Of a stretch of 12,053 bases of DNA, positions 458 through 12,053 are shown piece after piece. Positions within the stretch are counted from its first letter, which is position 1; each line of letters begins with the position of its first letter. The stretch lies in UHGV virus genome UHGV-1561195. One strand, 5' to 3'. Made by a program: the position numbers and the translations under genes. The notes below the pieces were generated by a model that searched no databases, had not been told where the DNA came from, and was given only the letters and a program-made list of their open reading frames with translations. This DNA is from a virus.

Positions 458-1022
458 CATCCGGCGCGGTGCTGGTATCTGTTGCCGTCACCGCGTCAAT
501 GTAATCCAGCACGGCGTTTAGTCGGGTGGTTTCTGTTTGCGTCAGCTTCCGTCCGGCCTGCAATTTCAGTTGAATAAGACTAATGGACGCCATTGCAGCA
601 TTAATCAGCGACTGGCGCTGTGTTTCTGCCGCTTCTACTGCAGCACCGTGCTGTGCCTCAGTATCTGTCACCCATTTTTCCCCATCCCATTTATCGTATG
701 GCGTTAACGGTGAAAGCGTGACATAACCGTCTTTGATGGCACCGATATAATCCACTGTAACGGCAGCGCCATTTTCGGTTGAGTAAACAGTCTCATGGCG
801 ATGGTCTTCTTCATGGTGCCATCCCTTCCCCGTAAATACTGCCACTTTCCCCGAAATGTTTTCGCCCGGGTCAATATAAGTGGAACAAGCGGGCATACTT
901 ACACCAGTATTAATATATTCATCAGACCAACCCGTATATTCATACGTTACTGCATCATAATAAAAACAACGCATATCACCCGGTACTGTAGCCAGCCCAT
1001 TTTCATCAAAAACAGGTTTCAT
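429..1022 (-). CDS. Tail fiber assembly protein (Tfa/U-like)
   Basis: 197 aa. N-terminus [11 protein letters not shown]...EYTGWSDEYINTGVSMPACSTYIDP and C-terminus LDYIDAVTATDTSTAPDVIWPELP are typical of the Tfa family. Its ATG overlaps the tail-fiber stop (TAATG), indicating translational coupling. Confidence 0.8.
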   Translation of the reverse strand: MKPVFDENGLATVPGDMRCFYYDAVTYEYTGWSDEYINTGVSMPACSTYIDPGENISGKVAVFTGKGWHHEEDHRHETVYSTENGAAVTVDYIGAIKDGYVTLSPLTPYDKWDGEKWVTDTEAQHGAAVEAAETQRQSLINAAMASISLIQLKLQAGRKLTQTETTRLNAVLDYIDAVTATDTSTAPDVIWPELPEA

Positions 1023-1768
1023 TATTTAGCCCTCACCAGAAAGTTAAATGCGATGTTACGTGGCCTGACGGCAATAAAATTCACACCATCACCCACTGAA
1101 TTACTGGTGTAATGGTATCGAGAGAAACCCGGCTCGTGTGCTGATATTCCATCGTGATTAGCAATCGAATGGCCGGAGCCCTCTGGATAATTACCTCCAA
1201 ATTGCGATAAAGATGTTGCTGCCTGCCAGCTTAATAATGCTCGCCCACTATCCACCCCGCACCCATCATCCCAGATACGAATGAAATCACCCCGTGCGTC
1301 AGGTAATACCAGCGACGGAAACACTTTCGCCAGCACAGGGTAATCAGTGGCAGAAAATTTCGCTCCGTTGAACTTCAAAAACACCATACCGGACCAGCTG
1401 TTGATTACGGTATTTGGCATTGCGGCGGAGGGCCAGAAGAACGGAACTCCAATAGCCGGAGCACCTTCTCCCAAACCAAGGTTTTCGAGAGCCGTTTGCA
1501 CAGTGCCATCCGATTTGATATCGCCAAACGGATTCTTGCGGCTTAACAGCAGCGCACGAAGCGCGGTAAGCAACTGATCGTGCCGCGCCTTCTCCAGACT
1601 GGCACCGGAGGCCTCCACCACGCTGCAAAGTTCTTCCTGCAACATGTCAAAGTAGTCATCATCCAAATCGGTGGCAGGCGTACCGGTCTGGGGGTTACCA
1701 CGGGTAAAACCGTTCTTACCCGCGCCGAACTTATCCTTCTGCGCGGTTTTCGTGTCTATACGATGCAT
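1022..1768 (-). CDS. Tail fiber protein, short, with phage tail collar domain; constant N-terminal part (about aa 1-96) joined to an invertible variable C-terminal part
   Basis: 248 aa. The segment [49 protein letters not shown] matches the tail collar domain pattern (YP.LF...LPDLRG.F.R.WD.G.G.D.GRAL). GGAG-type ribosome-binding site 7-8 nt upstream of the ATG at 1768. A Hin/Gin-type crossover site lies inside the gene at 1466-1491. Confidence 0.8.
1466..1491. other. Candidate DNA invertase crossover site (gix/pix/hix-like, 26 bp): TTCTCCCAAACC-AA-GGTTTTCGAGAG
   Basis: Two 12-bp imperfect inverted half-sites flank a central AA dinucleotide. Compare hixL TTCTTGAAAACC-AA-GGTTTTTGATAA and gixL TTCCTGTAAACC-GA-GGTTTTGGATAA, both recalled from memory. 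It sits inside the tail-fiber gene at codons 93-101, where the constant/variable junction is expected. Confidence 0.6.
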
Positions 1769-1771
1769 GGA

Positions 1772-2356
1772 TTACTCCGGATATTTAAAAATTACGTAAG
1801 TATGCGACGGGCAGAGTTTGTTAAGCACACATTCGACAACGGTGTCGCCCCAGATACGCAGTGCGGAATCACAGGGATCGCCACATGTCATCCAGGTGGT
1901 GTTGGTGGCGGCTGGCATGTTGACCTGCCAGTAATACCGCCATTCAGGCGCGTTCACCGCGTCAGTACAGGCCGATGAGCAGGTGAACGTGCTTTTGTCG
2001 TATCGCGTGATGGTGGCATCCGGTCTGCCCAGGGCAGCAAGCTGTGCAAGATAAAAATCCTCGTTGATGCCGCCCGCCAGATTAACCTTCGCATCCAGTC
2101 GTTGCTGACGCTGGCGAAGGGTCTGTGTCCCTGCGGGAATACATTCATCCGGCAGGCCGCACAGACGCTCCCAGCGATTTATCAGTTCGGTGGTGGTGCG
2201 CGGATCCAGCTCCCGCATCAGGGCATCCGCACGCTGATGAATGCGGGTTAATGACGGTGCCGCACCGGCAATCGCCGGATCGCTGGCTGACCACGCCGGA
2301 CCGGGGGGCAACAGTGCCGACAACAGACGGATGTAATCATCGTTTGTCACGTCCAT
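1772..2356 (-). CDS. Mu gp48-like / DUF2313 (YmfQ-like) tail or baseplate protein
   Basis: 194 aa. Occupies the position between the J-like baseplate gene and the tail fiber, as Mu gp48 and e14 ymfQ do. Overlaps the upstream J-like gene by 10 nt. Family assignment is from memory. Confidence 0.7.
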
Positions 2357-3405
2357 GAAATCGTCCCCAGTACCGCCAGTTCATTTTTTGCAATGGAGAT
2401 ATTGTCTGCCGGTGCAAGCAACTGATGGCTGTATTCCCCGTTCGCACCGGAAATCGCCTCACTGATACGCGACACCTTCAGTTCTCCCTGCGGATAACCA
2501 TCACGCAGCAGGAACGAACGCAACTCGGCGGTGATGGCAGCCCGTATTTCCGGTGTGTCCGGCGTCACGCGGATATGAAAATCCACTTTATGCGCCACCG
2601 GCCTGAATACATACAAATCAGAGCCTGCCACCGGGGCCAGTGGCTCAATGTGTTGTCTTGCCGCCGTTTCCGTTGATTCTTCCGGAATGGGATTAATCAG
2701 GTCACTGCCGGCAATCATCACACCGACAGTCCCCGTTCCCATCCAGTGGCGGTATGTCCATGCACGGGTAATGCCGGGCACTTCTTTAGCCCAGACAACA
2801 TAGTCCCCGTCAGCCCCGCCCTGAGGCGTCCAGTAATACCGCTCAATGACGCGGGCGCGCCACGTTTCCAGATCTTCAGTATCGAATCCGCCAGTCAGGG
2901 TATCTGCAACACCGGAAGACGGCAGACCATTCACCGGCGTGACCAGGATTAATGCCGTACCGTCGTCAGCGTTACCGACCGCGCCTGCACTTGAGCAAGT
3001 GATCGGCACGCGCAGGACACCACCGGAGCTGGTTGCATCAGCAGTTGCCGTGTACTGAACCAGGTCATCGCGCTGAATCACGCTCCCGGCAGTCACCTTC
3101 AGGCCATCGCTGACACCTCCCCAGCGCATATACCCGCTGGCAGCCGTGGCCCCCTTGCGCGGACACCGTTTCATCGCAGCATGTCGCGCCAGCCAGGACT
3201 CATCGCACAGGTCAGGCAGCATGTTCATTGCCAGATAATCGATGTAACCGTAAACCGTATGCAGCGCCGCCGCATACACCTTTGCCCGCACGTCTTCATC
3301 CATGCGCCGGAGCGTGTCGCTGACGTCCAGCCTGGCGAATAAATCGTTACGGAGCATACTGATATTTTCTGCCAGCGTCGGGCGCTGAAATTCACTGTCC
3401 GCCAT
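2347..3405 (-). CDS. Baseplate J-like protein (Mu gp47 / P2 gpJ family)
   Basis: 352 aa. Its size and its position after the gp46-like gene match Mu gp47, and the sequence resembles the Baseplate_J family as recalled. ATG at 3405. Confidence 0.8.
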
Positions 3406-3820
3406 GCGTTATCGCACTCCACAGATCATCAAAAGAAATCATTACCGGTCCGTCACGACGCCAGAGAGTGATACTGTTACCCAGTTCATTAATCCCGGTG
3501 CGGCGGATATCCAGATCAATACGGGACACCACGCCATCATCAATCATCCATTGCAGGCATTCGCGGATATACCCCCTTACCGTCTGCACCAGCTGATTGG
3601 TCAGTTTGCTGCGCTGAAGCAGCCACAGTCGGGAGCCGTAACGGTCATTCTGTACCGCAGGCCAGGTATCCCCCCACCATCCCATCGGGACGTCGGCGTT
3701 GTCATCAGGCTCCGCCCGCCGCCAGGTAAACAGGGAAATCACCACGGCGCGGGTCAGCGGATCCAGCGGTGCGCTGGCGCAGGTGCGTTTACCGTTCACC
3801 GTCAGCCACAGTTCCATCAT
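3392..3820 (-). CDS. Mu gp46-like baseplate protein (gp25/W-like)
   Basis: 142 aa. Position and size match Mu gp46. ATG overlaps the upstream stop (ATGA). Confidence 0.7.
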   Translation of the reverse strand: MMELWLTVNGKRTCASAPLDPLTRAVVISLFTWRRAEPDDNADVPMGWWGDTWPAVQNDRYGSRLWLLQRSKLTNQLVQTVRGYIRECLQWMIDDGVVSRIDLDIRRTGINELGNSITLWRRDGPVMISFDDLWSAITHGGQ

Positions 3821-4365
3821 GCCTCCATCGCTTTATCCGGTTTGTCGGTGTTACTGCCCTGACCGTTCTCTCTGTGACGATGCCCGTTATAGGCAAGCCG
3901 CATCGCTGACATGGTGGTGCCGCCGGAGTCGCACAGGTCTTTCACCTGTCCTGTCACTTCCAGGTCCATTTCAAAACGTGCTTCAGGTGCATTGCGAAAC
4001 GTGATCGTTTTACCTGCACCGTCCACCACGATCCCCTCCCGGGTCAGCGTCACGGACTGCCCCTGATCGTCATAGACAGCCACCTCACCCGTCTGCAGCC
4101 CTTTCAGCCGGTAGCGACGGTCCGACACCGTAACAACCACCGCATGAGAACGGTCGCCATCCGGAAACAACACCACCGCTTCCGCACCGCTGTTTGCCCT
4201 TGCGGTAAAACCGTAGGGTTCAAGATGTTCAACCCCGGCTTTGGGTTCACCGGCAATCAGGGACACATCCACGGTCTGACATTTCGTGGCGGCACTGATG
4301 CTTTTTACCACGGCCCGCCCAATCAGGCCGAGGAGTTGTCGCTGCATGGCTTCAATCGTCCTCAT
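3817..4365 (-). CDS. Baseplate assembly/spike protein (Mu gp45 / gpV-like)
   Basis: 182 aa. Position and size match Mu gp45. ATG at 4365 overlaps the hub-gene stop by 1 nt. Confidence 0.75.
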   Translation of the reverse strand: MRTIEAMQRQLLGLIGRAVVKSISAATKCQTVDVSLIAGEPKAGVEHLEPYGFTARANSGAEAVVLFPDGDRSHAVVVTVSDRRYRLKGLQTGEVAVYDDQGQSVTLTREGIVVDGAGKTITFRNAPEARFEMDLEVTGQVKDLCDSGGTTMSAMRLAYNGHRHRENGQGSNTDKPDKAMEA

Positions 4366-5444
4366 CAGAACGGGTCCTCCTGTACTCTGGCTTTTTTCTT
4401 TTTCCGCGCGCCGGGGGCTTCGGGTTCAGGCAGATAAGCATCAGGCGGGCCGACACGGATTTCCGTCAGGGTGCCGTTCTGGTCCTGAGTAAACGTGACT
4501 TCCGAGACAAGCAGTTCGGTATTGTCGAAACCACAGACCGGATCGAAGACAATCACCCGCTGGTTGGGCTGCCACAGCGTACCGTTACCCTGTCGCCAGC
4601 CCTGCACCACATAGGTGGTTTCATCCGTCCGCGCCGCCCGTTGTCGGGCTTCAAAGTCAGCACGGGCAATACAGCCTGCCCCCGTAGCCTGCCCTGTCTG
4701 CCTGATATACATCGGACGGTAACGGGCAATAAATGCGTCCTCTGTGCGGGCCCGCAGCGCGGTGGTGGTGGCCTCACCGAAATCATCGTCGTTTCCGGCA
4801 CGCTGCCCCGCCACCTGGTAAACTGAAAACCGCTCCCGGATACTCTTCTCCGTATCACAGGAAAGGATGTTTTCCCCAAGTACCAGCGCGGTATGTGCCC
4901 GCGTTGAGCCAATACAACCAATCACCAGCCTGCCGTGCGGGTCGTCATAAGCCAGCGCCTGCTGCTGACCGAGTATTTTGTTGATCACCTCGATCACCGT
5001 TTCACCGTGATCAGGCTGGACATCCGGAATAACACCCGACGGCGCACCGCTGTTCACCACCTCAATGCCGAAAGGCGCAGCAAGCGCCTGCGCAATCTGT
5101 ACCAGCGATCGTCCGTTAAATTGTGTCGGTTCGGCTGCACAATCAATCAGGTCAGCGGTCAGACTGCGTCCGGCAATACCGGTGCTGACCGAACGGGCAT
5201 CGTAACGAACGGGCGTCGCCTCCACCCAGCCGGTGATCACCAGCTCATCACCAATCAGCACTTCCACTTTTGAACCGTTTTTAATGCGCGGCTGAAGCGT
5301 GGTGATACCCTCATCTCCCGGCCACTGGCGGGTGATCTCCACACTGAAATCCCGCGCCAGCCGTTCAATACCGGCACCGATGCGCACCGATGTCCAGCCA
5401 TTCCACTCCCGGCCATTTACCCGTAGCGTGACGTTATCGTTCAT
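4365..5444 (-). CDS. Baseplate hub / late control D-like protein (Mu gp44, P2 gpD family)
   Basis: 359 aa. Follows the DNA circulation protein as in Mu. Basic C-terminal tail ARKKKKARVQEDPF. Translationally coupled to both neighbours. Confidence 0.75.
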   Translation of the reverse strand: MNDNVTLRVNGREWNGWTSVRIGAGIERLARDFSVEITRQWPGDEGITTLQPRIKNGSKVEVLIGDELVITGWVEATPVRYDARSVSTGIAGRSLTADLIDCAAEPTQFNGRSLVQIAQALAAPFGIEVVNSGAPSGVIPDVQPDHGETVIEVINKILGQQQALAYDDPHGRLVIGCIGSTRAHTALVLGENILSCDTEKSIRERFSVYQVAGQRAGNDDDFGEATTTALRARTEDAFIARYRPMYIRQTGQATGAGCIARADFEARQRAARTDETTYVVQGWRQGNGTLWQPNQRVIVFDPVCGFDNTELLVSEVTFTQDQNGTLTEIRVGPPDAYLPEPEAPGARKKKKARVQEDPF

Positions 5445-6817
5445 TGCACTGGCACCTTCAGAGGGATCACCGGCACAAAACCGGGATGCGTAATGGCATT
5501 ACGCCGGATAATGTCCGCGTCACGCGCCGCGTTATCAAACCAGGTCGCCGCCAGCACCAGCGCGGGTAAAACCTCATCCGGTGTGCGCTGAATGATCCGT
5601 GCAGACTGTTCAAGGCGCGTGTTGATATCCGCATTCAGATCTGCTTTCACCCGGCGCAGCGCCAGAAACAGCGCATCACTGGTTGTACGGGACAACTCCT
5701 TATCAATTGCCGTATTCAGTGTGTCGCGAATGTCGGTCAGTTCTTCCCACGTTGGCAGGTCAACCGTGTTTTTCACCGCCGGTGCATTGTTCAGTGCCGG
5801 ATGCGTGACAGAAGGCCAGCCGGTGCTCTGCGCGGGTGTTGTTGACTGCCCCACTGTGGCATTCTGCATCACCGCGGAAGTTGTTGGCGCAGGCAATCGT
5901 GTGACGGCATACGCCGCTTCGCTGATTGCGGTCGTACGAAGGGTGCTGGCAACCACGTTACGCTGCTGCGTCGCCGTGGCGGTGGTTTTACTGTCCGTTT
6001 TCCAGACGCCGCGCGGTTGCAGATCGCTGCCGAGGCTGACACCGGAAAGCGTTTTGATCATGGTGACCAGGTCGCTGGCGTTACCATAAAGGCGTTTCCC
6101 GGTACGCCACATTTTCTGCACCTGCTCAACGAAATTTTTGCCTGACGATGGCGGCGGCAGAAGTACCGAGATATCCCCCTGCAACAGCCTGGCAGCATCC
6201 GATACGGCAGAATCCACCACTTTCATCGTATCAGAAACATACCCCAGCATTATGCTGGCATTACCAATAACGTCGTTCTGCACAAAATCTGCCACGCCAT
6301 CGATACTGAAACCACTGAAGCTGTCACTGATGCAGTCATCCAGTGCAGAACAGGATGACATCAGCGTCTGCGCCGTCGCCGCACCTGAAGTGGGGTAAGA
6401 GAGTTCTCCCGCTTCGACAAACTTCAGGTCAAAGCGGACAATACGCCCTTCACTCTTCGATGTGCTGACCCGAACTTCCCCGTCAACACAGACTTTCAGC
6501 TCACCGTAAGTCGGATGGACAAGCGTGCCGGGACCGGGTTTATTCAGCGCTTCAATCAGGCGATCGCGCTGGTCAAAGCAGTCATCTCCCACCACATAAG
6601 CTGTGATGGACGGGCGGAAAGTGATTTTCCCCAGGTCTTCGGTATAGGGTTTGTCGCGGTTCGGGTATTCGTGTGTTTCCACACGGCGACCGGTTCCCGC
6701 ACTTTCTTCTTCAACCTTAAACGATACGCCGCGAAATGACGCGTCCTGAAGTCTGTCACGCCAGCCTGAAGACGACGAAAGTAATGAAGGTCGGGTGGGA
6801 AATGAGGATAAATCCAT
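5441..6817 (-). CDS. DNA circulation protein (Mu gp43/N-like)
   Basis: 458 aa. N-terminal region WRDRLQDASFRGVSFKVEEESAGTGRRVETHEYPNRDKPYTEDLG resembles the DNA_circ_N domain as recalled. GAGGT ribosome-binding site 8 nt upstream of the ATG at 6817. Confidence 0.8.
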   Translation of the reverse strand: MDLSSFPTRPSLLSSSSGWRDRLQDASFRGVSFKVEEESAGTGRRVETHEYPNRDKPYTEDLGKITFRPSITAYVVGDDCFDQRDRLIEALNKPGPGTLVHPTYGELKVCVDGEVRVSTSKSEGRIVRFDLKFVEAGELSYPTSGAATAQTLMSSCSALDDCISDSFSGFSIDGVADFVQNDVIGNASIMLGYVSDTMKVVDSAVSDAARLLQGDISVLLPPPSSGKNFVEQVQKMWRTGKRLYGNASDLVTMIKTLSGVSLGSDLQPRGVWKTDSKTTATATQQRNVVASTLRTTAISEAAYAVTRLPAPTTSAVMQNATVGQSTTPAQSTGWPSVTHPALNNAPAVKNTVDLPTWEELTDIRDTLNTAIDKELSRTTSDALFLALRRVKADLNADINTRLEQSARIIQRTPDEVLPALVLAATWFDNAARDADIIRRNAITHPGFVPVIPLKVPVQ

Positions 6818-6841: not shown

Positions 6842-8749
6842 TTATCGTGGAAAACGAAAAGGGGAATACCCCACATCGTGCGTGATTTTCATCAGGGGAT
6901 CGGCTTTGTCCGGTACATCAATTATCTTCATACCTGGCGGAGCATTCTCGAACGTGACTTTCAGCTCGCTGTGCTGTGTCATGGAAGAAGATGGATTCAA
7001 CAGCGGAACATTGGGTTTGTACTGACTCAGGCTGGCCTGATATTGCTCGTACTCTTTACGATCAAAAAAAGGCGTCCAGTCTGAAGCCAGAAACAGCCCT
7101 TTATTATCCAGCCAGTTAACCGTATCTTCAGGAACAACACTTTCCAGAGTATCTTTAACCGGCTCATACATCAGGGTTCCCAGAAAACCATATACCCCGG
7201 CCTTCCCGATAAAGCCGCGGCCTTTCCCCATCAATCCCGTTTCTGCCGATACCTTCCCCAGCGTACGCATCTCTCTGGTCACTGCGGTAATGGATTTGGT
7301 AACGTCAGCAACCCATTTGGTTGCCATAAACAGGGCAATCGCTTTCAGAACAGTTTCCCATCCCCCCATCGCCTGCGCCGTTTCATCCATCACGTGCCAG
7401 ACTTTTTTTATGACAGGACCTACGGTTTCCCAGTTATCAATAATGAGGTAAGCGCCACCAACCAGAAGAGCAATCAGCCCCTTAGCAGGCGTCATATTCA
7501 TCACACCGCCGAGAACTTTCATAATTCTGGACAAAGAGCCTGCAGCGGCTCCCACCGTCAGTAAGGCCAGACCGATTTTAGCAATGGTCTTAACGAGCTC
7601 CGGGTTTTCACGGACAAACGTTCTCACTTCCTCAAGGAGCGGTTTTACCGCTTCAAGACCATCATTAACCTCAGGAAGAAACGTTTCCCCCAGCGTGGAA
7701 GAAATGGCATCAAGTTGATTTTGCAGAAGTAAAAGCTGGTTTTCCGTCGTCGCTGCCCTCGAAGCATATTCCTTCTGCATCGAACTGCCATACTGCTGGG
7801 AATCCGCAACCCGCCTGAAGTTGGTACGCAACAAATCAAGGTTAGTCAGCAGAGGTGCTATCGCGCCCAGAGACTCTTTCCCGAACAGGGCATTCAGCAC
7901 AGCTGCCTGTTTTTCTTTAGGCACTTTAGCCATCGCATCCAGTACAGACAGCATGGTGCCCCGGGCATCTTTCTGCATATCAGCAGCTAATTTCTTCGGA
8001 TTGATCCGCAGAAAACGCAATGCCTGTTTCTGCGATTTTGTCGCAGAATTTCCCGCGGTCAGGGAAAGCATGAAGTTCTTGATCCCTGTGGCGGCAATTT
8101 CTGACTCCACGCCCATCCCGGCAATGGTTGCCCCCATTGCCGCGATTTCGCCGGAAGCCACACCTGCAACACCACCTAAAGGACCAATACGCGTAACAAT
8201 ATCGGAGATTTTCTTCGCGTTCGCCGGGCCGGTATTACCAAGGTAGTTGATTTTGTCAGCCAGCCCGGCCACTTCATCCTGCGTCATATTAAACGCAGTA
8301 CGCCACTGGGCCATCATCTGCCCGGACTCTTCAGCCGTGGTATCAAAGGCCACGCCCATCTTCACCGCATCAGTGGCAAACTGCATCAGTTCATCACGTG
8401 CAATCCCGGCCTGACCACCCGCCGCCACGATTTCAGCGATACCTTCCGCCGACATAGGCAGTTCGGTTGACAGGTCACGCACCTGCTCCGTCATGGCCTT
8501 AAACGCATCCGGCGTATCCAGACCGTCCACCACTTTGCGGACATCAGCCATCTTCGATTCAAGGGTGATGGCTGATTTTACAGGGAGTACCAGTGCCCCC
8601 ATTATTGCAGTACCCGCCCCGGCAGCGCCCAGAGCAAGGCTGGAGACTTCTTTCTGAAATCCCTTAAGCTGACGCTGCATACCTTTAAGCGGGCCGGATA
8701 GCCTGTCAACGGCGGTGATGATGGCTTTCAGCTGAAAATTATCAGCCAT
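6842..8749 (-). CDS. Tail tape measure protein
   Basis: 635 aa, Ala/Gly-rich and predicted largely helical, with a hydrophobic segment (IAKIGLALLTVGAAAG). Sits after the chaperone gene. GAGGAG ribosome-binding site upstream of the ATG at 8749. Confidence 0.85.
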   Translation of the reverse strand: MADNFQLKAIITAVDRLSGPLKGMQRQLKGFQKEVSSLALGAAGAGTAIMGALVLPVKSAITLESKMADVRKVVDGLDTPDAFKAMTEQVRDLSTELPMSAEGIAEIVAAGGQAGIARDELMQFATDAVKMGVAFDTTAEESGQMMAQWRTAFNMTQDEVAGLADKINYLGNTGPANAKKISDIVTRIGPLGGVAGVASGEIAAMGATIAGMGVESEIAATGIKNFMLSLTAGNSATKSQKQALRFLRINPKKLAADMQKDARGTMLSVLDAMAKVPKEKQAAVLNALFGKESLGAIAPLLTNLDLLRTNFRRVADSQQYGSSMQKEYASRAATTENQLLLLQNQLDAISSTLGETFLPEVNDGLEAVKPLLEEVRTFVRENPELVKTIAKIGLALLTVGAAAGSLSRIMKVLGGVMNMTPAKGLIALLVGGAYLIIDNWETVGPVIKKVWHVMDETAQAMGGWETVLKAIALFMATKWVADVTKSITAVTREMRTLGKVSAETGLMGKGRGFIGKAGVYGFLGTLMYEPVKDTLESVVPEDTVNWLDNKGLFLASDWTPFFDRKEYEQYQASLSQYKPNVPLLNPSSSMTQHSELKVTFENAPPGMKIIDVPDKADPLMKITHDVGYSPFRFPR

Positions 8750-9157
8750 GCTTCATCTCCTCATTTATACGGACGGCCTCTGCCTCCAGATCAGCAAAGT
8801 GGGAAATAGCCGTCCGGCGAAGTTCAAGGGGGTTTAATTTCCAGAACCACGCGACATTGTAGAATCGCTTCCGGAGGTCTCTTCCGTCTCCAAGCCGGTA
8901 AAAAAACGCATTACAATCATGCCTGCCTTGAAAATATCCAGCTTCGTCATCTGCGCTGCAGACGAGCGCGGGATCCCGGCCAGAAGCGGGATATATTTCA
9001 GCGCCACCTGACTGTCCATTTTCATACCACCATCAGGCGAAACAGAGAAAGGGAACCCCAGCGCCTCAATCTCGTCATACGTAGGCTCACGTATTTCCAG
9101 CACATGCAGTGTTTCTTTGTGGGCGATGATCGGTTTTTTAAGTACAAGCTCAATCAC
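8742..9157 (-). CDS. Predicted -1 frameshift-extended tail chaperone (G-T / E+E'-like fusion product)
   Basis: After a -1 slip at T-TTT-TTT (8900-8906), the new frame stays open for 52 codons (YRLGDGRDLRKRFYNVAWFWKLNPLELRRTAISHFADLEAEAVRINEEMKHG) and stops at TGA 8742-8744, overlapping the tape-measure ATG at 8749. Translated by hand from the sequence. Confidence 0.45.
8834..9157 (-). CDS. Tail assembly chaperone (Mu gp41 / P2 gpE / lambda gpG-like), in-frame product
   Basis: 107 aa, acidic, located between tube and tape measure. GTG start at 9157 overlaps the tube stop (GTGA), with an AAGGGG ribosome-binding site upstream. Contains the slippery heptamer. Confidence 0.7.
   Translation of the reverse strand: MIELVLKKPIIAHKETLHVLEIREPTYDEIEALGFPFSVSPDGGMKMDSQVALKYIPLLAGIPRSSAAQMTKLDIFKAGMIVMRFFTGLETEETSGSDSTMSRGSGN
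8900..8906 (-). other. Slippery heptanucleotide T-TTT-TTT (X-XXY-YYZ), candidate programmed -1 ribosomal frameshift site
   Basis: Seven consecutive A on the plus strand at 8900-8906. In the chaperone reading frame this reads cgT TTT TTT acc. Confidence 0.5.
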
Positions 9158-9510
9158 TGGTAATCCCCTTCTTCACCGTGGAACTCAAGATCAACCGTGC
9201 CTTCTTCGGCATTATGGTTCGCTTCACCGTGCAGCCAGGCGGACGACAATACATAGACCTGACCGTTCGCCAGCTCGGCAGTGATGGTCATCTCATCAGA
9301 CGAGGTGATTTTGCTCACCGGAAAATTCTTCGGCACCTTGAAGGTCCCTTTGACATAAGGTGCACGGTGAGTTTCCTTGCGGTCCACTGAACCGTCCAGG
9401 CCGATGATGTCATCATTGACCGTCCTGTTCATGGGCACCTCAATGCCGCCGGTCAGCGATAGCTGCTGACCGTCAATTTTGAAATAACAGGTTCCCCCGA
9501 TACGGGCCAT
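9154..9510 (-). CDS. Tail tube protein (Mu gpM / P2 FII-like)
   Basis: 118 aa. Immediately follows the sheath-like ORF and precedes the chaperone. ATG at 9510 overlaps the upstream stop by 1 nt. Confidence 0.8.
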   Translation of the reverse strand: MARIGGTCYFKIDGQQLSLTGGIEVPMNRTVNDDIIGLDGSVDRKETHRAPYVKGTFKVPKNFPVSKITSSDEMTITAELANGQVYVLSSAWLHGEANHNAEEGTVDLEFHGEEGDYQ

Positions 9511-10793
9511 TATGCAGACTCCTCTGAATACTGAAGACGGAACTGGTTAACCACGGCAAAGACACGCAACTGGTTAACATAGTCAGGCGGGAACAGCGTG
9601 TTCAGGCGGTTCGGATCGCTGGCATCACGCTCCACAACCAGGTACTGCTTAAACAGTTCGTAGTTTTCCACGATCCCCGCACGCTCAAGCTGACGGTAGG
9701 TTGCCAGCAGTTCCCCTTTGATCACCGCCGGGGTGACAATCGCCTGACCGGGACCAAAGCGGGTACCGTCACTGGCAAGCTTGTGACGCCCGTACTTACT
9801 GGTAATGACGGATTTCAGTTTGCGCAGTACATACGCGCTGGTATGCAGCGTCTCACTGTCGAGGTAGCTGTTATCCGCAACCCCGTAAGCGTTTTTCCTG
9901 TACGTGGTGACATCACGCTGAATGCGCAGTACCCCACTTTCGACATACGCCGTTGCCACGCCATGAGACAGCAGGGTCTGTTGCTCGGTCATCGTGAACC
10001 GTTTCCCCTTCGGTGCAGGCAGCATACCCACCAGCTCACCGGTCTGCGTGGGACGTGCCGGATCGTTGCGAATAAACACCGCTGCGCGGGCGGTACGGCT
10101 TGCCGCCAGCTCGTCGGCTGGCGTCTGAGTGTCTTTTTCGTATCCCGCCAGGGTAATGTGCTGCTGGTTAAACTGGTCACCTGCGGTCACCAGTTCTGAC
10201 AGCGTGCCGATCTTTGCCGTATACACATGACCATACAGCTGACGCGCATAGCTCCAGCGACCGCTGGTATCGTTCATCTCGGTCAGCATGGGTGTGCGTT
10301 TACACATCAGTCGCGCCGGGCGAAAGACTTCCCACGCCTGTTTCTCTGTCGTGGCACCGGAATACACTTCCGCGCCAAACTCGTTATCACAGGCAAAACA
10401 ATACAGGGCAACACCGGCAGAGATTGCCGATTTGCCGTTCTTACGGGGGATTTCGGTATACACCTCCCGGAAGCGGCGCAGCCGGGAGCCTTTATTGACC
10501 CAGCCAAACGCGCAGCAGATCACAAAGAGCTGCCACGGCTCCAGCGTGATGGGCATCCTCTTGAATGCCCACTCACCCTTGGTGTGCGGCAACAGCTGAA
10601 TAAATTTGGCGGCCCGTTCAGCCAGGTCCTTGTCGAAGCGGTAACGAAACGACTTACTTTTTTCCGCCATCAGATCATCAAGATGGCGCTGGCAGGCCTG
10701 AATCACAAACTGGCAGGCCACAATCTTTCCGCGAACGACATCCCGGGCATACTGATTGGCAGCATTTACGTTGGGGTAAGATTTCCGGCTCAT
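9510..10793 (-). CDS. Chimeric ORF: N-terminal about 165 aa of large terminase (Terminase_1 ATPase fragment with Walker A PRKNGKS) fused in frame to about 260 aa of tail sheath C-terminus; probable deletion-scar pseudogene
   Basis: N-terminus [24 protein letters not shown]...FGW...[18 protein letters not shown]...[24 protein letters not shown] matches lambdoid TerL N-termini as recalled. The C-terminal part ([15 protein letters not shown]...[26 protein letters not shown]) is sheath-like and sits directly upstream of the tube gene. TerL-like sequence stops near aa 165 (about nt 10290). Confidence 0.6.
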
Positions 10794-11284
10794 GATTCGA
10801 TAATTTTCAGAAACGGGTTAGTGGCTTTCTTCTGCCCCGCCAGGCCAATCAGACGCTGGCGGCTGCTGGGGTCGAGTCCGAGCATTGCCCCCGTACTGCT
10901 CATCTCGGACTCCTGTTCTTTTTTGGCGGTCAGCTCAGGATTTTTGACCATACCGCCCATTGCACCGGTGATGGTGTTGCCCTGTCTGGCAATATTTTTC
11001 ACGGCACGTCGCCAGAACTCATAGGCCACACACCACCGCTCAAGCACCGCGAGGTCAGTCACGCACAGCAGGCCCTGACCGCAGAGTTCTTTGGTTGTCA
11101 GTTGCCACATGATCGTGGCGAGAGGGAGATCTTCTTCAGCGAACCACTCCGGTGGCTCAACACCTTTGATGGGCGTAAAAACAGGTTCATCTTTATTCAG
11201 GGCTCGCTTGCCGGGGTTTCCGGCCAGCGCCTTGCGCGCCGTTGGCTTGGGGCGACGCCCGGAACGCCCCGCCGTTCCAGCCAT
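10790..11284 (-). CDS. Terminase small subunit, P27 family
   Basis: From the ATG at 11284 the protein begins [36 protein letters not shown], matching the P27-family TerS N-terminus as recalled. AGGAG lies 8 nt upstream. The ORF track's longer start at 11293 is a GTG and adds only three codons. Confidence 0.8.
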
Positions 11285-11293
11285 ATGCGGCAC

Positions 11294-11409
11294 TCCTGGT
11301 TAAATTTCATTTTTCGCGGGTATAAAAAAACGATGGGGCGGGCAGTCCGGAAGACGTCAGGTCACAGGGATTTGACCCGCCCCTCCCCTCAGGAAGTTGA
11401 GAATCATTA
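11294..11409. promoter_or_regulatory. HNH-TerS intergenic region with GC-rich inverted repeat; candidate cos / terminase recognition region
   Basis: GGGGCGGG at 11335-11342 and CCCGCCCC at 11376-11383 form a perfect 8-bp inverted repeat with a 33-nt spacer. The spacer contains a GACGTC palindrome and a GGTCA/TGACC repeat. HK97-like phages place cos between the HNH and terminase genes. Confidence 0.3.
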
Positions 11410-11760
11410 TCACTTCAACCGTTCACGGGCCGTCTTCGCCTTATGACACGGCCAGCACAGACTCTGCAGATTACTGTCGGCATCAGTGCCGCCATGTGCT
11501 TTAGGGATGATGTGGTCAACGGTTTTCGCCTCGCGCACCACACCGGCACGCAAACACAAGTGACACAGGCCTTTGTCACGCTTGAGCACACGTTCACGGA
11601 TAACATCCCATTTCGCACCATAACCGCGCTGGTGTCGGGACTGGCCTGGCTTGTATTGCTTCCAGCCTTCGCTTTTGTGGCTTTCGCAATAGCCTGACGG
11701 GTCTGTGGTGGTATTACGGCAACCTCGAGCACGGCAGGCTTTCGGGATACGAAGAGGCAC
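11410..11760 (-). CDS. HNH endonuclease (phage terminase-associated HNH)
   Basis: HNH motif CHLCLRAGVVREAKTVDHIIPKAHGGTDADSNLQSLCWPCH. Cys-rich N-terminal region KACRARGC...GYCESH. Likely starts at GTG 11758-11760 (AAGGT 6 nt upstream), which coincides with the composition boundary. The ORF track's ATG at 11817 would add 19 codons of AT-rich sequence with no ribosome-binding site. Confidence 0.75.
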   Translation of the reverse strand: MPLRIPKACRARGCRNTTTDPSGYCESHKSEGWKQYKPGQSRHQRGYGAKWDVIRERVLKRDKGLCHLCLRAGVVREAKTVDHIIPKAHGGTDADSNLQSLCWPCHKAKTARERLK

Positions 11761-11836
11761 TTTATTACCTTGATTATTTATAGGGTTAAAATAAGTATAT
11801 TCACAAAAAACATTCATTGATTATGAGAATCAAAAA

Positions 11837-12053
11837 TCAGGAAATAATACCCTCCGATTTTCCTTTGCTTATGTAAACTAATTTATCATTACCTAATGAT
11901 AACACTTGTTGAAATTGTGGCTTTATTTTTATGCATCCTCCCAAAAAATAAGCAAAACTACTTACCCCTCCAATAACATTATAAGGATAATCTACTGACA
12001 TAGATAAAACAGTTCCCGCCAGACTAAATATTTGTGAAAAATCGAACTCAAAG
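11837..12053 (-). CDS. 3' end of an unidentified AT-rich ORF entering from the right edge (hypothetical protein, partial)
   Basis: Minus-strand frame is open from the window edge to TGA at 11837-11839 and encodes ...FEFDFSQIFSLAGTVLSMSVDYPYNVIGGVSSFAYFLGGCIKIKPQFQQVLSLGNDKLVYISKGKSEGIIS. Codon usage is strongly AT-biased, unlike the phage operon. No motif recognised. Confidence 0.3.
   Translation of the reverse strand, partial: FEFDFSQIFSLAGTVLSMSVDYPYNVIGGVSSFAYFLGGCIKIKPQFQQVLSLGNDKLVYISKGKSEGIIS

Follow-up and report, generated by a model that had tools for sequence, protein, structure and literature searches.

How does a single open reading frame (ORF) come to begin as the large terminase subunit of a phage and to end as its tail sheath? 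We investigated this question in 12,053 nucleotides of the virus genome UHGV-1561195, hereafter the window. The phage is a temperate one of the e14/SfV type in Escherichia coli, now defective, and the window is its late region. An earlier note, made from the letters of this DNA alone, had described a 427-residue ORF on the minus strand at positions 9510-10793 and read it as a chimera of the large terminase (TerL) and the sheath, left by an in-frame deletion. We found the ORF exactly there. Our analysis makes it very probable that microhomology-mediated deletion in an e14/SfV-type prophage left this terminase-sheath fusion as an inert ORF, a scar. Moreover, the sheath-side end of the deletion is a position at which prophages of this family have been broken many times. 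The ORF and its parts are as follows.

Positions 9510-10793, minus strand: chimeric ORF of 427 residues with an ATG start; the N-terminal 170 residues of TerL joined in frame to sheath residues 242-498.
Positions 10286-10793, minus strand: terL-derived part, codons 1-170, with the Walker A motif PRKNGKS (98.2% identity to SfV nt 1-1070).
Positions 9510-10281, minus strand: sheath-derived part, sheath residues 243-498 (96.9% identity to SfV nt 8223-9391).

The two parts of the protein belong to different families. In Pfam, TerL_ATPase (PF03354) lies at residues 86-175 of the chimera, with profile positions 1-88 of 178 only, and is followed by Phage_sheath_1 (PF04984) at residues 167-297 (profile 33-168 of 168) and Phage_sheath_1C (PF17482) at residues 306-418. 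In PHROGs, residues 3-170 match terminase large subunit phrog_4914 (E=8.5e-68) and residues 171-420 match tail sheath phrog_165 (profile positions 243-493 of 493, E=1.8e-122). Both databases thus divide the protein at residues 170/171 into a terminase-like and a sheath-like part, as the earlier note had proposed. That note had also made its reading depend on there being no one family over the whole protein. Neither family covers the full length, no single family spans all 427 residues, and the only full-length matches are other deletion chimeras with different junctions. A natural two-domain family is ruled out, because intact TerL and sheath are separate genes and the full-length matches are themselves products of deletion.

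What does the chimera keep of each parent? On the terminase side, Walker A is present (PRKNGKS, residues 115-121, aligned with RKNGKT of HK97 TerL 6Z6D). Walker B (hcavvDE) corresponds in the same alignment to residues 205-211 of intact TerL, and the breakpoint at residue 170 comes first; the chimera does not contain a complete TerL ATPase domain with Walker B and its catalytic glutamate. Intact TerL carries PF03354 at residues 86-256 and the nuclease domain PF20441 at residues 268-558, and PF20441 is missing from the chimera. On the sheath side, the intact protein carries PF17481 at residues 95-196, PF04984 at residues 206-368 and PF17482 at residues 377-489. The sheath C-terminal domain and subtilisin-like core are retained, the sheath-derived part comprising the C-terminal domain and most of the subtilisin-like domain, and residues 1-241 of 498, with the N-terminal region and the beta-sandwich domain II, are gone. 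Structures of pyocin, T4 and type VI secretion system sheaths show that the N-terminal arm is required for the mesh between subunits. With Walker B, the nuclease domain and sheath residues 1-241 all missing, the element would be unable to package DNA or to make a full-length sheath, in agreement with the earlier note, and we infer from these losses that the fusion protein is non-functional, an inert by-product.

Where were the two genes joined? The earlier note had suggested looking for microhomology near 10260-10320, and three-way alignments place it within that interval (slashes mark breakpoints here and below).

Positions 10282-10285, minus strand: deletion junction with the 4-bp microhomology TGAC (terL CTGAC/GGAA, sheath GTGAC/CGAG).

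Across the junction, terL reads CCCATGCTGAC/GGAAG, the sheath gene reads CGCTGGTGAC/CGAGATG and the window reads CCCATGCTGACCGAGATG. The sheath copy of TGAC sits within GGTGACC, and the junction 26-mer occurs once in the window. Comparison with phage SfV by BLASTN gave two abutting collinear blocks, window 9129-10295 matching SfV 9391-8223 and window 10282-11351 matching SfV 1070-1. The missing DNA amounts to 7,165 bp relative to SfV and 7,413 bp relative to the intact prophage of E. coli G47-1, and the join is in frame either way. Alignment to these two intact relatives, which the earlier note had proposed, found a terL of 577 residues, a sheath of 498 residues and the whole head and neck module between them. 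The SfV order is terS, terL (577 residues), portal, protease, capsid, adaptor, head closure, neck, orf9, DUF2635, sheath (498 residues) and tube.

The loss removed more than the sheath N-terminus. TerL residues 172-577 are gone, including Walker B and the nuclease domain, together with a ymfR-like ORF, the portal, protease and capsid genes, a small ORF, and the connector, head closure and neck genes. Also lost are the tail terminator (PF23840) and DUF2635, both Pfam-confirmed in intact relatives, and sheath residues 1-241. The ORF list of the window contains no ORF for portal, protease or capsid between terS and the tube gene, where intact relatives have their head and neck module, which agrees with the earlier description of this interval. 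That description, however, had the deletion take the head module, and it extends further, into the neck/tail-completion gene, the tail terminator and DUF2635. Because these three are deleted, tail assembly is crippled beyond the truncation of the sheath itself, and without portal, protease, capsid, connector, neck and tail-terminator genes the element would support neither DNA packaging nor a normal contractile tail.

The parent type combines a P27-type terminase, HNH endonuclease and cos site with an HK97-type head and a Mu-type contractile tail, and the window DNA is 96-98% identical to the Shigella and E. coli phages SfV (NC_003444), SfII, SfI and SfIV. Of the 5,426 complete E. coli genomes, about 1,100 contain terminase and sheath sequences 95-99% identical to those of the window. 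The packaging module of an e14/SfV-type lambdoid myophage (HNH gene, cos with TGCCCGCCCC, P27-family terS-terL) is in place, as are the Mu-like tail module (gpL sheath, tube, gpN, gpP, gp45-48) and a Pin-invertible fibre segment. The HK97-type head module (portal, protease, major capsid protein) is absent here and present in intact relatives, and since no ORF of that module remains, the element is a defective derivative. The nearest intact relative that we found is the G47-1 prophage, which lies at icd beside pinE and mcrA and carries the e14 gene names ymfL, ymfQ, ymfR and tfaE. The window and the contigs fetched for comparison end inside the prophage, so that the integration site lies outside them. 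SfI, SfV and e14 have been described as close relatives, with packaging from a cos site whose 10-nt end is TGCCCGCCCC (PMC3636060).

The element shares with SfV its genome architecture, 97-98% DNA identity over terS, the 5' part of terL, the 3' part of the sheath gene, the tube and the baseplate genes, the cos overhang TGCCCGCCCC and the adjoining HNH gene. SfV, by contrast, is a complete viable phage with the full head/neck module, whereas the window is without those 7.2 kb, has a different tape measure gene and a different fibre, and carries an invertible fibre segment. The e14 element of K-12 is what remains of this kind of phage, riddled with deletions and with its morphogenesis ORFs fused or truncated. 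The deletion in the window, from terL codon 171 to sheath codon 242, differs from those of K-12 e14, and the window keeps the whole tube, baseplate and fibre block that K-12 e14 has largely lost. A headless contractile-tail gene block beside a lysis cassette is also what R-type tailocins (R-pyocins) possess. Tailocins need a complete sheath and a tail terminator, whereas the deletion in the window has taken the first 241 residues of the sheath along with the terminator, the neck gene and DUF2635; the R-type set of full-length sheath, tail terminator and tube is not complete in this element.

Is the junction a property of one DNA molecule or of a lineage? Using an exact-protein look-up, which was the only means by which carriers were found, we detected the identical 427-residue protein in 8 or more samples, on 10 or more contigs whose DNA is 99.7-100% identical to the window. 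The carriers comprise one NCBI isolate assembly (GCA_029999495.1), four ENA gut-type metagenome assemblies and three Logan assemblies. The junction 26-mer was not found in GTDB species-representative genomes or in IMG/VR, and the terL::sheath junction is present in none of the 5,426 complete E. coli genomes. The isolate GCA_029999495.1 (L004) has in addition lost 1,126 bp within the tape measure gene (window 7485-8610; L004 12182/12183) with the microhomology TA, a deletion that frameshifts the gene and leaves an ORF of 259 residues. A junction shared among samples, followed in one of them by a further deletion, indicates a real, vertically inherited prophage remnant that is still decaying.

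The junction also occurs on a second prophage background. A 427-residue variant (P0002) with the identical terL::sheath join is encoded at 10001-11284 of L020 (GCA_045011435.1), in a prophage whose early region is lambda-like (CII, O, P, Nin genes and Bor); the early region of the window lineage carries CP76, HTH_36, PerC and KilA-N genes. The two junction-bearing elements differ at 224 of 10,268 aligned bases (2.2%), with single-nucleotide differences as close as 29 nt and 136 nt to the junction. Moreover, the terS-terL flanks of the two elements are 98.0% identical to one another, and each matches an intact prophage more closely (99.5% and 99.7%), not the same one in the two cases. With an identical junction on two diverged backgrounds, the deletion probably arose more than once. 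Independent recurrence is the simpler reading of these alignments, transfer of the junction between backgrounds by very short conversion tracts being the less simple one. The earlier proposal of a single in-frame deletion therefore holds in that there is one clean in-frame gap relative to both SfV and G47-1, but this gap perhaps does not record a single historical event.

Why might the same two positions have been joined more than once? A deletion hot spot that is used from both sides lies at the sheath endpoint, GG-TG-ACC at codons V241/T242 (GGTGACC in intact phages, window 10282-10288). We searched the chimera against a collection of 5.8 billion proteins and read the matches, and ran a mirror search with sheath residues 1-241 (proteins P0001-P0234). 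Many other E. coli chimeras resume the sheath at the same residue (x/ followed by the same ten sheath residues; /TEMND). At least 22 distinct upstream contexts are fused to sheath /TEMND, with partners that include terS (1), TerL (5 positions), the portal (3), the capsid (2), the adaptor (1), the N-terminal part of the sheath (3) and several early genes; an NTG codon closes the partner sequence in 21 of the 22. In the mirror search, at least 13 distinct downstream contexts follow sheath ...SVNTLV/, each resuming just past an NTG codon; these lead into gp45, gp46, baseplate J, gp48, the DNA-circulation protein (twice), three internal sheath positions and out-of-frame continuations. All other positions of the sheath gene have at most 3 contexts.

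The seven junctions that we examined as DNA, including those in the finished chromosomes CP019361 and CP021722, all cross at GG-TG/ACC. Their microhomology ranges from 1 to 7 nt and always includes TG, except in the terS fusion, where only G is shared. Other GGTGACC sites of the sheath gene (codons 129/130 and 273/274, nt 826) also recur, far less often, and T242 is about ten times hotter than two other GGTGACC sites of the gene. Complete genomes rarely show such an event, a break no more than 100 nt from the hot spot being present in only 17 of 1,088 records. Automated junction mapping was only partly successful, as several reference loci themselves carry junctions, and the tallies of the hot spot do not rest on it.

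The sheath gene is not the only gene with such positions. The DNA-circulation gene (window 5441-6817) has recurrent breakpoints near codons 302 and 395, V/TRLPAPTT (GTC/ACC CGA) and NAD/INTRLEQ (GGA-TA-TC), the latter always with TA microhomology and used in both directions. Fixed two-sided breakpoints with an invariant core of 1-2 nt are thus a general property of these prophages, and no single motif accounts for them. Since deletions in this prophage family reuse a handful of exact positions, as deep public sampling of E. coli shows, its decay is partly deterministic.

The fusion in the window is one member of a family of such products. The AR_0128 remnant, the portal::sheath fusion of CP019361, terS::sheath and sheath::gp48 chimeras record the same kind of event, many of the family chimeras using the same sheath breakpoint GGTG/ACC with 1-7 nt of microhomology. 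Their partner breakpoints differ from that of the window, and several carry multiple deletions. In E. coli AR_0128 (L001, CP021722), positions 11700-15100 hold ymfL/terS, terL/orf9, sheath V241/R361 and chaperone/fibre-assembly junctions together, and the AR_0128-type sheath allele was seen on 154 contigs. The SfV/e14-type remnants L017 and L018 are also multiply deleted, L017 with TerL/connector and sheath/gp48 junctions.

How might the fusion have formed? A break in the DNA, repaired through microhomology, would have led to illegitimate recombination joining terL codon 171 to sheath codon 242 at TGAC, with about 7.2-7.4 kb deleted. The right end of the deletion was probably set by a local predisposition to breakage, given that the sheath endpoint is among the few recurrent two-sided breakpoints of this phage family, and the left end probably by the position of a short match (TG, with AC in addition here). 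The frame may have been kept by chance, or in-frame products may be the ones ascertained, with the result that gene callers report a single protein of 427 residues. Several observations weigh against so simple an account. All downstream tail ORFs are open and the ATGA and TAATG coupling overlaps are kept, which could be read as selective maintenance; and the G47-1 prophage shares 98% identity with the tail flank but 95% with the terS-terL flank. The copies differ so little, however, that there has been too little time for the open tail ORFs to be informative about selection, and the unequal flanks indicate that the true parent is not among the prophages compared.

Could the fusion have been retained for a function instead, either as a dominant-negative decoy against terminase or sheath assembly in superinfecting relatives or within a domesticated tail-only particle (tailocin)? 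The open tube, tape-measure, baseplate and fibre ORFs, an active fibre-inversion switch seen in both orientations, the retention of translationally coupled overlaps with terS and the tube gene, and the presence of the same fusion on two backgrounds would all fit such a role. We nevertheless consider it very improbable. A contractile tailocin would fail without sheath residues 1-241, the tail terminator and the neck genes, near-identical copies mean that open ORFs say nothing of selection, and the tape measure is already frameshifted in one lineage. Dozens of same-site junctions join unrelated partners, some out of frame, which points to a mutational rather than a selective cause, and the absence of the junction from all 5,426 complete E. 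coli genomes likewise speaks against a retained function.

Recombination of two SfV-like prophages resident in the same cell, or of a resident prophage with a related phage that infects the cell, would also bring terL and sheath together, and E. coli genomes have up to 4-8 places that match these genes. The difference in flank identity to the best intact relative (95% on the terS-terL side, 98% on the tail side) would be expected of two parents, but mosaicism of such size is normal in this phage group, as the tape measure and fibre genes that differ from SfV illustrate. Because the genes on either side of the junction follow one another exactly as in a single phage genome, in order and in direction, and because exchange between loci would also rearrange the chromosome, this origin seems very unlikely to us. 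Least credible of all is an assembly or gene-calling artefact. Carriers are mostly short-read contigs, but the same junction emerges from different assemblers and projects, including a 130-kb NCBI isolate contig, the 4 shared bases at the join are far too few to mislead a de Bruijn assembler, and analogous same-site junctions stand in the finished chromosomes CP019361 and CP021722. Deletion within one prophage genome accordingly remains the reading that we favor.

What breaks the DNA at this point of the sheath gene? A pseudo-cos site was ruled out, as the cos overhang TGCCCGCCCC and its flanks are unlike the hot spot. The sequence GTGACC found 22 nt upstream of cos is not conserved, being GCGGCC in L012 and L020. 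A quasi-site for the Pin invertase was likewise ruled out: the true crossover site has the core AA and the arms AAACC/GGTTT, and crossover at a quasi-site would fall after ACC, not at TG. A Chi-like sequence, GCTGGTGA, was rejected by reasoning, since its orientation explains only the class of junctions that retains the leftward part. In a check for hairpins, T242 lies atop an 8-bp stem, T274 lies in a quasi-palindrome and T130 is without structure, with folding z-scores of -1.7, -1.75 and +0.75, which are not significant.

An attractive lead is offered by the HNH endonucleases associated with terminases, which nick DNA with specificity for both site and strand, in most characterised cases at G^GT / AC^C (PMC3592412). 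The window encodes an HNH endonuclease beside cos, and GGTGACC has a G^GT core on both strands, so that two opposed nicks would give a double-strand break. However, the GGTCACC site of the DNA-circulation gene (window 6062-6068) has no junctions. This unused site, the recurrent sites of other sequence and the greater heat of T242 than of its sister GGTGACC sites weaken GGTNACC, whether cut in BstEII fashion or by double HNH nicks, as a sufficient cause. A literature search for GGTGACC-type motifs as deletion hot spots returned nothing relevant. We propose only tentatively, and as something rather less likely than its negation, that the sheath breakpoint is a sequence-specific DNA-break site that repeatedly truncates e14/SfV-type prophages in both directions, with similar fixed sites perhaps in other late genes, such as GGA-TA-TC in the DNA-circulation gene. 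Candidates for the breaking enzyme are the phage's own cos-associated HNH nickase, a host restriction enzyme and a topoisomerase, of which gyrase, with its T^GRYC core, would be one. If such a site exists, a defined nuclease would drive reproducible, convergent prophage inactivation, and the identical terL::sheath fusion would arise independently across strains.

In the 1.5 kb of the sheath gene (L012 22811-24307; SfV 7511-9007), any one 7-mer would be expected about 0.1 times, and GGTGACC occurs five times. The copies all stem from xxG-GTG-ACC (Val-Thr) or GGT-GAC-C codons, and one pair, lying 10 nt apart, makes up a quasi-palindrome of 21 nt.

Deletion scars in defective prophages of the e14/SfV type are well known, and the chimera adds a new allele to them. 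It represents ordinary prophage decay, except that one end of the deletion lies at a repeatedly broken spot. Its importance is mainly for annotation. Public records name the fusion 'terminase large subunit' or 'tail sheath' (the NCBI label of the same 427-residue protein is 'terminase large subunit [Escherichia coli]'); it is neither, should not be so annotated, and marks a prophage remnant that is dead for both packaging and tail assembly. The hot spot and the apparent convergent recurrence are relevant to research on illegitimate recombination and prophage domestication. Should a specific nuclease be responsible, these junctions would offer a natural, population-scale read-out of its cleavage sites and a mechanism for convergent prophage domestication.

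What surrounds the scar? The remaining features of the window are listed here.

Positions 11410-11817, minus strand: terminase-associated HNH endonuclease, 135 residues, adjoining cos (PF01844, phrog_144).
Positions 11335-11344, minus strand: cos cohesive-end sequence TGCCCGCCCC, located by sequence.
Positions 10790-11293, minus strand: small terminase of the P27 family, 164 residues from the ATG used by gene callers (PF05119, phrog_83).
Positions 9154-9510, minus strand: tail tube, intact (PF10618 full length; length equal to that in the intact prophage).
Positions 8834-9157, minus strand: tail assembly chaperone, 107 residues, intact (PF10109; length as in the G47-1 prophage).
Positions 6842-8749, minus strand: tape measure, 635 residues, intact (PF10145; length as in G47-1).
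Positions 1022-6817, minus strand: Mu-type baseplate and fibre genes, all open (ORFs; Pfam families of the identical contig L005).
Positions 1-1491, no strand assigned: invertible tail-fibre segment with the fibre C-terminus and two opposed assembly genes (flipped in contig L006).

The terS stop overlaps the chimera start (ATGA), and the tube start overlaps the chimera stop (TAATG). Tube, chaperone and tape-measure genes follow downstream at the positions listed, and the earlier claim that the downstream tail genes are intact is upheld by lengths that match the intact G47-1 prophage. The baseplate and fibre block encodes a DNA-circulation protein, a gpP-like hub, gp45, gp46, baseplate J, gp48 and the tail fibre; the lengths of these genes also equal those of the G47-1 prophage, excepting the variable fibre C-terminus. 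L006 has the fibre segment flipped relative to the window and matches it at 100% identity elsewhere. At 1466-1491 is a crossover site of the Pin/Gin type, TTCTCCCAAACCAAGGTTTTCGAGAG, and a Resolvase/HTH_7 invertase gene adjoins the segment in L004 and L006. The occurrence of both orientations indicates that the invertase has been active since these samples diverged.

At the other end of the window, the 10-nt cohesive end TGCCCGCCCC is the one determined experimentally for SfI and SfV (PMC3636060). In the conserved stretch just upstream of cos, one motif (window 11362-11373) is polymorphic: L012, L020 and L021 have CTGCGGCCTG where the window, SfV and L013-L019 have CTGTGACCTG. The HNH gene exists in forms of 135 and 116 residues. 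Beyond it, at window 11837-12053, the last 200 bp have a G+C content of about 42%, against 54-59% elsewhere. The counterpart of this segment in L004 is part of a DUF6236 gene of 287 residues, possibly an accessory gene (moron) that was inserted there, with the lysis cassette on one side and the HNH gene on the other.

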